Shown here piece by piece: positions 742-1,601 of a stretch of DNA of 11,426 bases. The position numbers and the translations under genes were made by a program. Origin of the DNA: a virus (Duplodnaviria > Heunggongvirae > Uroviricota > Caudoviricetes); the IMG/VR virus record IMGVR_UViG_2548876934_000003; one strand, given 5' to 3'. The notes beneath the pieces were generated by a model. That model was not told the DNA's origin, searched no databases, and worked only from the letters and a program-made list of their open reading frames with translations. The first letter of the stretch is position 1, and each line of letters starts with the position of its first letter.

Positions 742-1407
742 TCAATTTTTAAGAGCACTGATACAGAAAAATTGCATGACATTTTTCTTTATTGATTTAA
801 ATAAGCTAAACATTGTGACAGGTTCAAAGCTAGTTAACTCGATGAATTCCTCTCTCATTTGAGAAAGTAACAGCTGACGTACTGATTCAATTTCTGCTGT
901 TTGTTTTCTCAAATATCTTGAGAAAACAAGTAGTTCATCAGCTGTTTTGTTTTGGCCATTTATAAACGTAACAGGTTGCCCTGGCTTAGATATGAGAAAA
1001 AATTGGTTAATTTTATCAAGTAATGGTGGAATTATTTTTTTCCATTCAGCCCATTCTTTTTCACGATGAAACTCCAGACTGTGCTGACATGTTCTTAGTT
1101 GCTGTATATCAATCGCCCAGACCTCACTCTCATCGAGGCAATCTTTCCATTTGCTAATTACATTAATGTCAAATTTTTTGTTCGGTAGATAATTATCTTT
1201 GGCGTGCGCTTCCAGTATAGAGGCAAGAGTACCTGTATATTGCATCAAATTGGTAGATGCTCGGTTTACTAGCTCAGATATTCGATCTAGTTGAGTTGTT
1301 CTAATCTCAAGTGCTTTCTTTTTACGTTCATTTCGTAAAGCAAAATATGCAGCAAGGCAGACTGCAGCAACTGTGGCTGCTGGTGCGATAAAAATTTGCA
1401 TATTCAT
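742..1407 (-). CDS. Hypothetical membrane-anchored protein (221 aa) in an AT-rich insertion; function unknown, candidate moron/accessory gene
   Basis: The ORF track gives 742..1431; I prefer the ATG at 1405-1407 (MNMQIFIAPAATVAAVCLAAYFAL...), which has AAGGA about 9-10 nt upstream. There is an N-terminal hydrophobic helix of about 20 residues, then RNERKKK and a long, charged, probably helical domain. I found no Walker A, HxH, PD-(D/E)xK or other motif I recognise. Sampled stretches are about one-third GC, against about 55-63% in the flanking phage genes. Confidence 0.75.
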   Translation of the reverse strand: MNMQIFIAPAATVAAVCLAAYFALRNERKKKALEIRTTQLDRISELVNRASTNLMQYTGTLASILEAHAKDNYLPNKKFDINVISKWKDCLDESEVWAIDIQQLRTCQHSLEFHREKEWAEWKKIIPPLLDKINQFFLISKPGQPVTFINGQNKTADELLVFSRYLRKQTAEIESVRQLLLSQMREEFIELTSFEPVTMFSLFKSIKKNVMQFFCISALKN

Positions 1408-1468
1408 AACATGGATCCTTTGACATGGCATTTATGGGGGCTATTTCAGCAGTAATCATTTGTGTGTA

Positions 1469-1487
1469 AATTTGTTTGCTACAAATT
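1469..1487. promoter_or_regulatory. Inverted repeat AATTTGT-N5-ACAAATT in the AT-rich leader upstream of the cargo ORF
   Basis: Perfect 7-bp arms with a 5-bp spacer at 1469-1475 and 1481-1487, 60-80 bp upstream of the cargo start, in the 1432-1601 non-coding leader. Candidate operator or factor-binding site; no promoter elements were confidently placed. Confidence 0.3.
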
Positions 1488-1601
1488 AACATATTCTAAT
1501 GTAAGGCTCTTCTGATTTTGACACCGGGTAGGCTGTCAGATTGGTTATGATTCTTGCTGTAAGCGCGTTAGCAAATGTCAGGGCTAATGCATCTAAGTTG
1601 T

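Follow-up and report, generated by a model that had tools for sequence, protein, structure and literature searches.

A horizontally acquired single-gene insert in the D-ogr interval of a P88-like prophage encodes an orphan protein with a predicted membrane anchor

We found that the interval between tail gene D and the late-gene activator ogr in a P88-like prophage of E. coli (Peduoviridae, Xuanwuvirus) holds a horizontally acquired, self-contained single-gene insert, or moron, and that this interval is a hotspot for cargo genes. The cargo gene is real and under purifying selection, and it encodes a 221-amino-acid protein (WP_001057121.1) whose family is present on many kinds of mobile element. 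We consider it somewhat probable that the protein excludes phages or mobile elements in some way. (The window, below, is the whole stretch of DNA that we analyzed: 11,426 nucleotides of the IMG/VR virus record IMGVR_UViG_2548876934_000003.)

An AT-rich insert in a P88-like backbone

The insert and its surroundings comprise these features:

332..592, minus strand: ogr, late-gene activator and left border of the hotspot (Pfam Ogr_Delta, E = 5e-14; RefSeq annotation)
623..651, minus strand: ogr promoter-like element, TTGGAG / 17 nt / TAAACT (direct reading, and a nine-allele alignment of the flank next to ogr)
624..1591, unstranded: AT-rich inserted segment, 968 bp, 37.5% GC (blastn breakpoints against phage P88)
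1602..2702, minus strand: tail gene D, 366 amino acids, right border of the hotspot (Pfam Phage_GPD, E = 3e-17; translation)

The blastn breakpoints, at positions 623 and 1592 of the window, map to adjacent bases of P88, and the gap between D and ogr is 1009 bp in the window versus 42 bp in P88. A previous reading of the sequence alone had proposed about 860 bp of AT-rich DNA between D and ogr of a P2-like phage. The comparison with P88 upholds the insert and the short gap in a relative, but the insert measures 968 bp against the empty site, and the backbone is P88-like, not that of P2 itself. (A divergent orientation of D and the sheath operon is natural in the P88-like backbone.) The contrast in GC content was also borne out: in 200-bp windows, GC is 33.5-42% over 701-1600 and 49-60% in the flanks, although the 55-63% given earlier for the neighbors was somewhat too high. 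The cargo gene has 35.7% GC and 27.9% GC at third codon positions (GC3), as compared to 50-54% GC and 53-60% GC3 for the flanking phage genes (D, 53.4% GC and 57.8% GC3; ogr, 49.8% GC). D is annotated at 366 amino acids in sister prophages as well. A hok/gef gene is located 190 bp past ogr.

The promoter-like element of ogr lies at the left edge of the insert. This flank is common to every cargo-bearing allele, and the -10 hexamer of the element coincides with the P88 breakpoint. The element is tentative, as it scores 7-8 of 12, under the threshold of our scan.

The deviant GC content, the terminator-like hairpin described below, and the absence of the segment from the closest phages support its being a horizontally acquired moron. 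Indeed, like morons in the sense of Hendrix and Juhala, it is a single extra gene in a late region that is otherwise syntenic; it is AT-rich and absent from the closest relatives; and it has a terminator-like hairpin and a leader of its own.

The cargo gene, its leader, and its hairpin

Three features make up the cassette:

742..1407, minus strand, including the stop codon: cargo gene for a 221-amino-acid orphan helical protein, predicted to be membrane-anchored, WP_001057121.1 (list of open reading frames; RefSeq coding sequence)
1408..1549, minus strand: conserved 5' leader and presumed promoter region, with the Shine-Dalgarno sequence AAGGA (1420-1416) and a -10-like TAGAAT (1498-1493) (homology with a copy in a Kluyvera lambdoid phage)
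695..739, minus strand: terminator-like stem-loop directly after the stop codon, with core stem 726-704 (terminator scan; RNA folding)

The reading frame is open over 742-1431 on the minus strand. The supported start codon, ATG at 1407, lies 7 nt from the ribosome-binding site and gives 221 amino acids; RefSeq annotates the same protein, as the sequence-only reading had proposed. A leader belonging to the insert had been proposed too, and besides the AAGGA site we found that all 142 nt of it are kept in an unrelated lambdoid phage of Kluyvera, where the gene diverges from its neighbor (77.6% identity over 818 nt, matching the window from 1549 to 735). The best promoter-like hexamers in the leader are weak (8 of 12, with TAGAAT as the -10), and a stricter scan of the leader (at least 9 of 12) identified no sigma-70 site of consensus grade. 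The gene may have its own promoter, for which the conserved leader is indirect support, and would then be expressed in the lysogen.

The downstream hairpin, another element of the earlier reading, was recovered by a terminator scan on the minus strand and by folding. The extended stem is a predicted terminator at -25.6 kcal/mol (z = -5.3), and 0 of 200 shuffled sequences were equally stable. The window shares this hairpin with L027, and the Kluyvera copy lacks it. Rfam identified no RNA family within the window.

A decaying or functionless hitch-hiker might also sit in such a slot. Disrupted copies do exist, in phage 520873 and as truncated members of sequence clusters, and IS1 and ISEcp1-blaCTX-M-15 insertions adjoin the gene in some genomes. 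Against this, dN/dS is 0.33 relative to an 86%-identical homolog and 0.25 relative to a 74%-identical homolog, with dS of up to 0.65. Furthermore, the length and motifs of the protein hold across the family down to about 20% identity, the AlphaFold fold is confident, and the exact sequence is found on over 1,000 contigs. A functionless open reading frame is therefore very improbable.

Many unrelated cargos occupy the D-ogr gap

The P88-like D/ogr backbone is present in 1,457 of 5,426 complete E. coli genomes, or about a quarter. The cargo gene is far from universal in this backbone: it is found in 57 of the 1,457 genomes (57 of the 5,426). The D-ogr junction is empty in the closest phages, namely P88, Shae_phiSM, PhiR44_2, P884B11, and Chuche. 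In a sample evenly spaced among 1,460 matching records, and counting junctions with both flanks or with the D flank, about 24 of 46 junctions were empty and the others held at least 10 unrelated types of cargo. The gap in other cargo-bearing alleles is 918-1971 bp, and the slot usually holds one gene, sometimes two, between sharp borders.

Our gene alternates with unrelated cargos, several of which have defense-type domains: DUF2971/PDC-S31, DUF3800, SEC-C, PIN (PIN_4), and HEPN-like, besides others. The DUF2971 cargo matches PDC-S31 of PADLOC (E = 5e-27), and the DUF2971 protein Aristaios is a validated antiphage gene of lactococci (PMC11381338). Rugutis, a protein with a SEC-C motif, is also a validated antiphage protein (PMC11381338), and the SEC-C cargo itself (WP_001317900.1) is given as a "Putative novel defense gene" among the listed rows of DefensePredictor Table S10 (PMC13092281). 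DUF3800 is the effector domain of type VII retrons (PMC7736814). Across nine cargos, PADLOC gave a single match, PDC-S31, which is itself a mere candidate, and therefore the label of "defense hotspot" rests on domain-level parallels.

The sequence-only reading had pointed to old, tin, and Z/fun as cargo of P2-family phages. These are known variable loci, but the D-ogr gap is a different one. Z/fun of P2 occupies the G-FI region. The old and tin genes lie between gpA and gpQ in P2-like phages (Rousset et al. 2022, PMC9122126); that study analyzes the cos-proximal gpA-gpQ locus and nowhere mentions ogr. Like the P2 and P4 hotspots, the D-ogr gap is a fixed slot in Peduoviridae with conserved borders and many unrelated cargos, several with defense-type domains. 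Unlike the gpA-gpQ hotspot, it belongs to the P88-like lineage, and it rarely holds known defense systems (one PADLOC candidate among nine cargos).

If the D-ogr gap is indeed a defense hotspot, then its 10 or more alternative cargos, most of them without annotation, could be mined just as the P2 gpA-gpQ and P4 hotspots were. Whatever our gene does, the slot is an easy, PCR-addressable site for harvesting candidate defense genes, because it is compact, usually holds one gene, and has sharp borders. It also shows the movement of cassettes among P2-like phages, lambdoid phages, integrative conjugative elements (ICEs), and islands.

An orphan protein with a predicted membrane anchor

Searches of Pfam, NCBIfam, PHROGs, and PADLOC with the 221-amino-acid protein and 17-32 relatives found no family for it, and neither did searches of the PDB sequences with the single sequence or a profile. 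In PADLOC-DB v2.0.0, the protein matches only REase_II (E = 0.024, 13 bits), and 32 family members gave no consistent match to any defense model; PHROG models matched neither the protein nor 31 relatives. No OLD/TOPRIM or other domain was found by Pfam or PADLOC, nor any homology to old, tin, Z, or fun of P2. The protein thus remains unclassifiable, as the earlier reading had it, and the profile searches revealed no homology to housekeeping or structural phage proteins. One cluster member is labeled as DUF4760 in UniRef, but PF15956 hit neither that member (P0030, E ≤ 10) nor 17 relatives (E ≤ 1). WP_001057121.1 was not found among the listed rows of the DefensePredictor supplements. In an incomplete survey of the literature, we found no earlier account of this accession, of the D-ogr hotspot, or of similar proteins. 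The family is a small one, with about 30 clusters, all in Enterobacterales.

The single N-terminal transmembrane helix and the helical domain that had been proposed are both predicted:

1336..1398, minus strand: codons of the N-terminal transmembrane helix, approximately residues 4-24 (hydropathy; AlphaFold helix; conservation)

Residues 5-23 have a mean Kyte-Doolittle hydropathy of 2.11, and the AlphaFold (AF2) model is all-helical (pLDDT of 86.7). In this model, the transmembrane helix is followed by a four-helix bundle of about 170 residues, predicted to be cytoplasmic, and a C-terminal amphipathic helix. Because the N-terminal flank of the helix has a charge of zero or less and the C-terminal flank has a charge of +4 (RNERKKK), we predict that the N terminus is outside and the C terminus inside, so that the protein would be anchored in the inner membrane. 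All 17 of the family members that we checked satisfy the positive-inside rule. For some relatives, the hydropathy of the segment (1.3-1.5) makes a transmembrane helix only a borderline assignment. Within the family, conservation is highest in the transmembrane and juxtamembrane segments and lowest in the distal loops: it is 3.06 bits per column in the transmembrane segment versus 1.6-2.0 in the membrane-distal parts. P9, T12, A20, and L24 of the helix are conserved.

Several known proteins invite comparison. HK97 gp15, an exclusion moron within the tail-gene cluster, is a small single-pass protein of the inner membrane, as is predicted for our protein; ours is not known to be related to it in sequence or structure, and the large domain of ours is predicted to be cytoplasmic. 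Csx28-type membrane effectors combine an N-terminal transmembrane helix with a helical cytoplasmic domain and form an oligomeric pore. The four-helix-bundle sensor domains of chemoreceptors and histidine kinases (4HB_MCP, NarX/NarQ, Tar/Tsr) are located in the periplasm, flanked by two transmembrane helices, and pass their input to a signaling module. In contrast, our protein has one transmembrane helix, a bundle that is predicted to be cytoplasmic, and no output domain; its identity to these sensors is 6-11%, with no Pfam match.

SNIPE is a validated defense protein whose N terminus is periplasmic and whose chain, after one transmembrane helix, continues in the cytoplasm (PMC13190303), which provides an experimental precedent for a defense protein with the topology predicted here. 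Like our gene, SNIPE / PD-lambda-1 is a single gene on mobile elements. SNIPE contains DUF4041 and a GIY-YIG nuclease, whereas our protein has neither, nor any enzymatic motif. [quoted passage not shown]

SNIPE also bears on another explanation, namely that our protein blocks the entry of phage genomes (superinfection exclusion) by binding a host component of the inner membrane or the ejection/tape-measure complex, so that the cell survives with its membrane undamaged. With its N terminus out and C terminus in, SNIPE reaches the injection site through contacts with the tape-measure protein and ManYZ (PMC13190303). One homolog of our gene directly adjoins a SNIPE-domain gene. Our protein is encoded by a prophage, and it is single, small, non-enzymatic, and predicted to be membrane-bound; the conserved P9, T12, A20, and L24 would suit helix-helix contact with a conserved membrane protein of the host. 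However, classical exclusion proteins usually act on closely related phages and stay within a single phage lineage, while this family is also on ICEs and non-phage islands, and we detected no sequence or structural likeness to any annotated exclusion protein. On balance, we view a block on entry as rather unlikely.

Homologs on other mobile elements

The homologs lie in diverse settings. In Yersinia, two different lambdoid backbones carry a homolog in the interval from Q to the lysis genes, and the Kluyvera homolog is in the cargo region of a lambdoid phage, adjoining a colicin-like gene. The homolog that adjoins the SNIPE-domain nuclease gene is on an island and also adjoins an integrase. Another homolog, likewise on an integrase-adjacent island, is near a pair of genes for a Gabija-like OLD-TOPRIM ATPase and UvrD, another is on an island at a tmRNA site with a KAP NTPase, and another is beside HipA. 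Others are inside the tra regions of ICEs, including one between traC and traU. The neighborhoods of ten homologs have no conserved partner gene, so we rejected a two-gene system.

The Yersinia settings raise the possibility of an accessory of the lytic cycle that is expressed with the late genes, such as an antiholin-like regulator of lysis timing. In the lambdoid prophages of Yersinia, the homolog comes first after the antiterminator Q, directly before the holin or lysis cassette; in the window, the cargo gene is downstream of the late gene D in the same orientation; and the protein is a predicted single-pass membrane protein. But the gap between Q and the holin is a classic moron site of lambdoid phages, and some homologs are on ICEs and islands that lack lysis genes. 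Moreover, the Kluyvera gene opposes its phage neighbors and retains the same leader, and the gene is absent from most P88-like phages. A lytic role is quite improbable. Identity with a holin or with a protein like T of T4 was rejected, given the reversed predicted topology and the homologs on elements without lysis genes.

Alternatively, the gene might be an accessory for lysogenic conversion or element maintenance rather than defense: a modulator of the envelope or of stress, an addiction-type membrane toxin silenced by H-NS, or something like conjugative entry exclusion. Silencing of AT-rich islands is common in E. coli, and non-defense morons occur in cargo slots too. Neighbors of the family include HipA, the hok/gef gene past ogr, and the colicin-like gene; the position between traC and traU would fit as well; and the first 30 residues look like a small hydrophobic toxin with a basic stretch after it. 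However, neither a cognate antitoxin nor any partner is conserved, and the family is found repeatedly in slots and neighborhoods rich in defense-type genes. The conserved, structured cytoplasmic domain of about 170 residues would also be superfluous for a simple membrane toxin. We regard a role outside of defense as unlikely.

A possible anti-phage function

The protein is a good candidate for an exclusion factor because sister prophages hold defense-type genes in the same slot. That the transmembrane helix is conserved and that no enzymatic domain is present suggests a mechanism at the membrane. The suggestion of exclusion, abortive infection, or membrane defense comes from the location, the family's distribution, and the architecture.

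The explanation that we favor as a whole, if tentatively, is that a moron cassette encodes an anti-phage factor that acts at the membrane. In a more specific and more doubtful version, the protein would be a single-gene sensor and effector of abortive infection on the cytoplasmic side of the inner membrane. A component of the infecting phage might be recognized by the variable end of the bundle, the one distal to the membrane, and the conserved transmembrane and juxtamembrane core might then execute the response, by self-association or by perturbing the membrane. It is quite possible, if short of probable, that the protein founds a new family of single-gene membrane anti-phage proteins, with the core as effector and the tip of the bundle as sensor, and that the D-ogr gap is a previously undescribed defense hotspot. 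If the gene does exclude phages, then it represents a defense family that is invisible to PADLOC, PHROGs, and Pfam.

Repeats and insertion sequences at the slot

We also considered whether the cargo moves as a transposon-like cassette, with terminal inverted repeats and a 9-bp direct repeat (TCTAAGTTG), and found this to be unsupported in the window. Tests within each allele supported a long inverted repeat for L014, the SEC-C allele, alone (z = 10.7), and the window and seven further alleles did not exceed chance; a scan with 20-nt motifs for repeats that bracket the cargo was noisy. Separately, in at least one clinical isolate, the slot has taken up ISEcp1-blaCTX-M-15.

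Composition and borders of the insert

The gene under study lies in a prophage with the following features:

1-141, minus strand: hok/gef-family gene (46-aa toxin), at the prophage end between ogr and host ihfA
332-592, minus strand: ogr (Ogr_Delta, E = 5e-14)
742-1407, minus strand: cargo ORF, 221 aa
1602-2702, minus strand: tail gene D, 366 aa (Phage_GPD, E = 3e-17)
from about 2860, plus strand: sheath-tube-tape-measure operon
about 6144: point at which the tape-measure gene is cut
6200-7000, minus strand: gpM, after the tape-measure cut
after gpM, minus strand: truncated capsid gene
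7862-9166, plus strand: truncated terminase P
after terminase P, plus strand: truncated portal Q
after portal Q: HTH gene, then integrase

Positions 1-6144 are collinear with the chromosome of the EPEC strain E2348/69 (99.9% identity), directly downstream of ihfA. The closest sequenced phages are P88-like (Peduoviridae, Xuanwuvirus), with flank identity of 96-98%, and the divergent arrangement of D and the sheath operon is native to these phages. Thus, the backbone, which a sequence-only reading had described as P2-like, is P88-like rather than P2 proper. Collinearity with E2348/69 is limited to 1-6144. The remainder, 6145-11426, is pieced together from parts of the same P88-like prophage, with internal deletions, and none of the complete E. 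coli genomes had at least 80% coverage of 5600-11426. The hok/gef-family gene is kept in all of the P88-like prophages examined, whatever chromosomal site they occupy. (A scan of the window with Rfam, at the gathering threshold, gave neither a Sok-like RNA nor any other.) In many genomes, the PGAP annotation in RefSeq shortens D to about 263 aa and names it "contractile injection system protein, VgrG/Pvc8 family", accompanied by a 93-bp pseudo-CDS on the opposite strand (window 1602-2834). This looks like an annotation artefact: the 366-aa reading frame is intact in the window, and other genomes have full-length D annotated.

The sequence-only reading had also proposed that about 860 bp of AT-rich DNA carrying a single gene is inserted between D and ogr, and had suggested profiles of GC and codon usage as a check. 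GC content in 200-bp windows is 33.5-42% across 701-1600, versus 49-60% on either side. The cargo gene has 35.7% GC and 27.9% GC at third codon positions (GC3), compared to 53.4% and 57.8% for D, and ogr has 49.8% GC. The flanking genes do have higher GC than the insert, but nearer to 50-58% than to the 55-63% originally given. The breakpoints relative to P88 are at 623 and 1592, which are neighbouring bases in P88, so the insert is 624-1591, or 968 bp, which is about 100 bp longer than first estimated. The gap between D and ogr is 1009 bp in the window and 42 bp in P88.

The gene's own signals were also as described. The 221-aa ORF begins at ATG 1407, with AAGGA 7 nt upstream, and RefSeq has the same start. 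A stem-loop lies 3' of the stop codon (core 726-704); it was detected by a terminator scan and has a predicted folding energy of -25.6 kcal/mol (z = -5.3). The ratio dN/dS is 0.33 relative to an 86%-identical copy and 0.25 relative to a 74%-identical copy, with dS of up to 0.65. By these sequence comparisons, the gene is real and under purifying selection. That it has no function at all seems most improbable.

The D-ogr interval is a cargo hotspot

A query running from ogr to D matches 1,457 of 5,426 complete E. coli genomes, and the whole query including the cargo gene matches 57. (With an inner query, 600-1700, the cargo gene was found in 54 complete E. coli genomes.) This sparse distribution among genomes with a matching backbone, along with the deviant composition, bears out the proposal that the gene is a horizontally acquired moron. 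The sequence-only reading had suggested asking what else occupies the interval, and we took a census of 60 rows, evenly spaced along the match ranking. About half of the sampled junctions are empty (spans of 1,542-1,545 bp) and the rest hold unrelated cargos, several with defence-type domains.

Alternative cargos of the D-ogr interval, by locus
L012: 261-aa DUF2971 protein
L013: 389-aa DUF3800 protein
L014: 379-aa SEC-C/YecA-family protein
L015: 201-aa protein of unknown family, O157:H7 FRIK2533
L016: 384-aa protein of unknown family
L017: two-gene unit, 134 and 186 aa
L018: 500-aa PIN_4 protein
L004: 340-aa protein with a weak HEPN match, phage 500465-2

The cargos occur in both orientations. 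All of the cargo-bearing alleles have in common an ogr-side block of about 45 bp (window 624-667) and a D-side block of about 10-20 bp. The ogr-side block includes a promoter-like sequence that reads into ogr (TTGGAG, 17 nt, TAGAAT; TAAACT in the window).

The only cargo that matched PADLOC is the DUF2971 protein (candidate model PDC-S31, E = 5e-27). Validated antiphage genes of lactococci include the DUF2971 protein Aristaios and the SEC-C-motif protein Rugutis (PMC11381338), and DUF3800 is the effector domain of type VII retrons (PMC7736814). The accession of the SEC-C cargo appears as "Putative novel defense gene" in Table S10 of DefensePredictor (PMC13092281). These precedents are domain-level parallels and do not imply orthology.

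Morons in prophage cargo hotspots are a known phenomenon, of which the gene in this slot is a classic case. The published hotspot of P2-like phages sits between gpA and gpQ, and ogr is absent from that paper (PMC9122126). In the literature searched, whose coverage was partial, we found no prior description of a D-ogr hotspot. As far as our searches reach, it is new to recognise the D-ogr gap of P88-like prophages as a hotspot, with ten or more alternative cargos.

The cargo alleles also share edge blocks (read inward, CTTAGATGTATTAGCTCAGAC and CCAAyCTGACAGyCCGCTyTGTGCC), at 593-667 and 1515-1601 in the window and at 598-686 and 2294-2382 in L014. These resemble inverted repeats around a cassette. 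The resemblance is statistically strong in L014 only (a 90-nt alignment, z = 10.7); in the window and the remaining alleles it does not exceed chance. The edge blocks may serve as a recombination anchor; alternatively, they may be an old palindrome or terminator, or what is left of an element.

A new protein family

The 221-aa protein had no match in Pfam, NCBIfam, PHROGs, PADLOC, or PDB sequences, in agreement with the sequence-only reading, which recognised no family. In a word-indexed search of 5.8 billion proteins, the matches were all close copies, from E. coli and Kluyvera. Using an exhaustive phmmer search of 1.84 billion cluster representatives, we found 24 proteins at E ≤ 1e-3, nearly all of 199-235 aa, and a profile search found 31 at E ≤ 0.01, about 20 of them beyond those already aligned. 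The profile-search members with a named source are all from Enterobacterales (Klebsiella, Citrobacter, Salmonella, and Pseudescherichia; Yersinia and Pantoea members were assigned via cluster names), and none has a Pfam domain. (One member is labelled "DUF4760" in UniRef, which the Pfam HMM did not reproduce.) Only H114 and W122 are invariant across 32 aligned members; P9, T12, A20, L24, N26, K30, K31, L111, and L180 are at least 90% conserved. This is a new family, absent from Pfam, PHROGs, and PADLOC.

Many genomes are annotated with a 167-aa version that starts at Met55 and lacks the transmembrane helix (P0034, P0036, P0038, and P0049-P0054), and phage 520873 has a frameshifted copy (124 aa).

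Predicted structure and topology

The sequence-only reading had predicted a single N-terminal transmembrane helix followed by a helical domain, and had called for structure prediction. AlphaFold2, given a 17-sequence alignment, returned an all-helical model in keeping with this (mean pLDDT 86.7, pTM 0.72). A continuous helix (4-71) comprises the transmembrane segment (mean hydropathy 2.11 for residues 5-23) and then a long cytoplasmic extension; helices 81-93, 101-114, 116-136, and 156-192 complete a four-helix bundle. The C-terminal helix (199-220) is amphipathic (hydrophobic moment about 0.45). In 17 of 17 members checked, the short N flank of the transmembrane segment has a net side-chain charge of -2 to +1 and the C flank of +1 to +4 (RNERKKK in the window protein). 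This asymmetry predicts that the N-terminus is outside and the bundle is in the cytoplasm. The product is a non-enzymatic protein with a structured bundle; a single-pass, N-out/C-in topology, with the bundle in the cytoplasm, is predicted.

The transmembrane helix (3.06 bits per column) and juxtamembrane segment (2.96) are the best-conserved regions; the C-terminal helix and the end of the bundle farthest from the membrane (1.6-2.0) are the least conserved. One would not expect the strongest conservation in a passive anchor, so this transmembrane and juxtamembrane core probably makes specific contacts.

Homologues in other mobile elements

Genomic contexts of homologues, with identity to the 221-aa protein
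P0003 (86%, E. coli): same D-ogr slot, in a P88-like prophage at another chromosomal site, adjoining serS
P0004 (74%, Kluyvera): lambdoid prophage, with a colicin-like gene and an IS remnant alongside; orientation opposite to that of the neighbouring phage genes
P0008, P0009 (about 40%): adjoin integrases, and P0009 adjoins a SNIPE-domain nuclease gene as well
P0010 (about 38%, Pantoea): near a Gabija-like pair (OLD-TOPRIM ATPase and UvrD helicase)
P0011 (about 35%, Yersinia): between antiterminator Q and lysis genes, in two distinct lambdoid backbones
P0083 (about 31%, Klebsiella): island at a tmRNA site that also carries a KAP NTPase
P0078, P0091 (about 30-32%; P0091 is from Salmonella): within ICE regions, adjoining HipA or lying between traC and traU

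Judged from these contexts, a single-gene cassette moves among the cargo slots of several classes of mobile elements, and genes of defence type recur in these slots and neighbourhoods. In 7 of 10 contexts, the homologue has a higher AT content than its flanks. No neighbouring gene is conserved across them, which suggests that the cargo gene acts alone. DNA homology between the Kluyvera copy and the window runs from 1549 to 735, and includes the leader and the ORF but excludes the hairpin. The extent of this match delimits the mobile unit, and is an argument for the gene's own (predicted) expression signals being in the leader. The D-side edge block is where this homology starts.

In Kluyvera georgiana (L025:4077-7671), the homologue's cargo region is flanked by the replication and nin/Q modules. 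Its other genes encode a product of 408 aa that has a pore-forming colicin domain, a putative lipoprotein or immunity-like protein (100 aa), and a protein of unknown family (206 aa), and the region also contains a transposase remnant. In one Yersinia lambdoid backbone (L008:8738-9493, L010:8258-9070), a second, unannotated gene (251-270 aa) separates the homologue from the lysis genes; the other backbone (L009) lacks this second gene. As for the cargo gene itself, a late or lysis accessory role seems improbable.

Proposed role

We lean modestly towards an exclusion or defence factor. A role unrelated to defence, in conversion, addiction, or entry exclusion, is less likely. Within the defence reading, our tentative preference is for a sensor-effector (abortive infection) mode, in which the distal, variable part of the bundle would sense a cue of infection, and self-association of the conserved core (a predicted oligomeric state), made up of the transmembrane and juxtamembrane segments, would perturb the membrane. 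The grounds for this preference are the gradient of conservation along the protein and the occurrence of family members on elements other than phages. Nearly as plausible is a pure block of entry at the injection site, for which SNIPE provides experimental precedent in both N-out/C-in topology and position (PMC13190303). The 221-aa gene is best regarded as a candidate that is well defined and cheap to test, and not as a surprise.

Insertions within the slot

The leader of the 221-aa gene is interrupted in one clinical isolate (NZ_CM151386.1): about 93 nt upstream of the ATG, at window ~1500-1504, it has an inserted ISEcp1-blaCTX-M-15 unit (about 2.97 kb, L019:3030-6000). The insertion has an apparent 5-bp overlap (TGTAA) and adjoins the -10-like TAGAAT. 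Strains AR_0128 and AR_0118 have copies of IS1 in the D-ogr interval.
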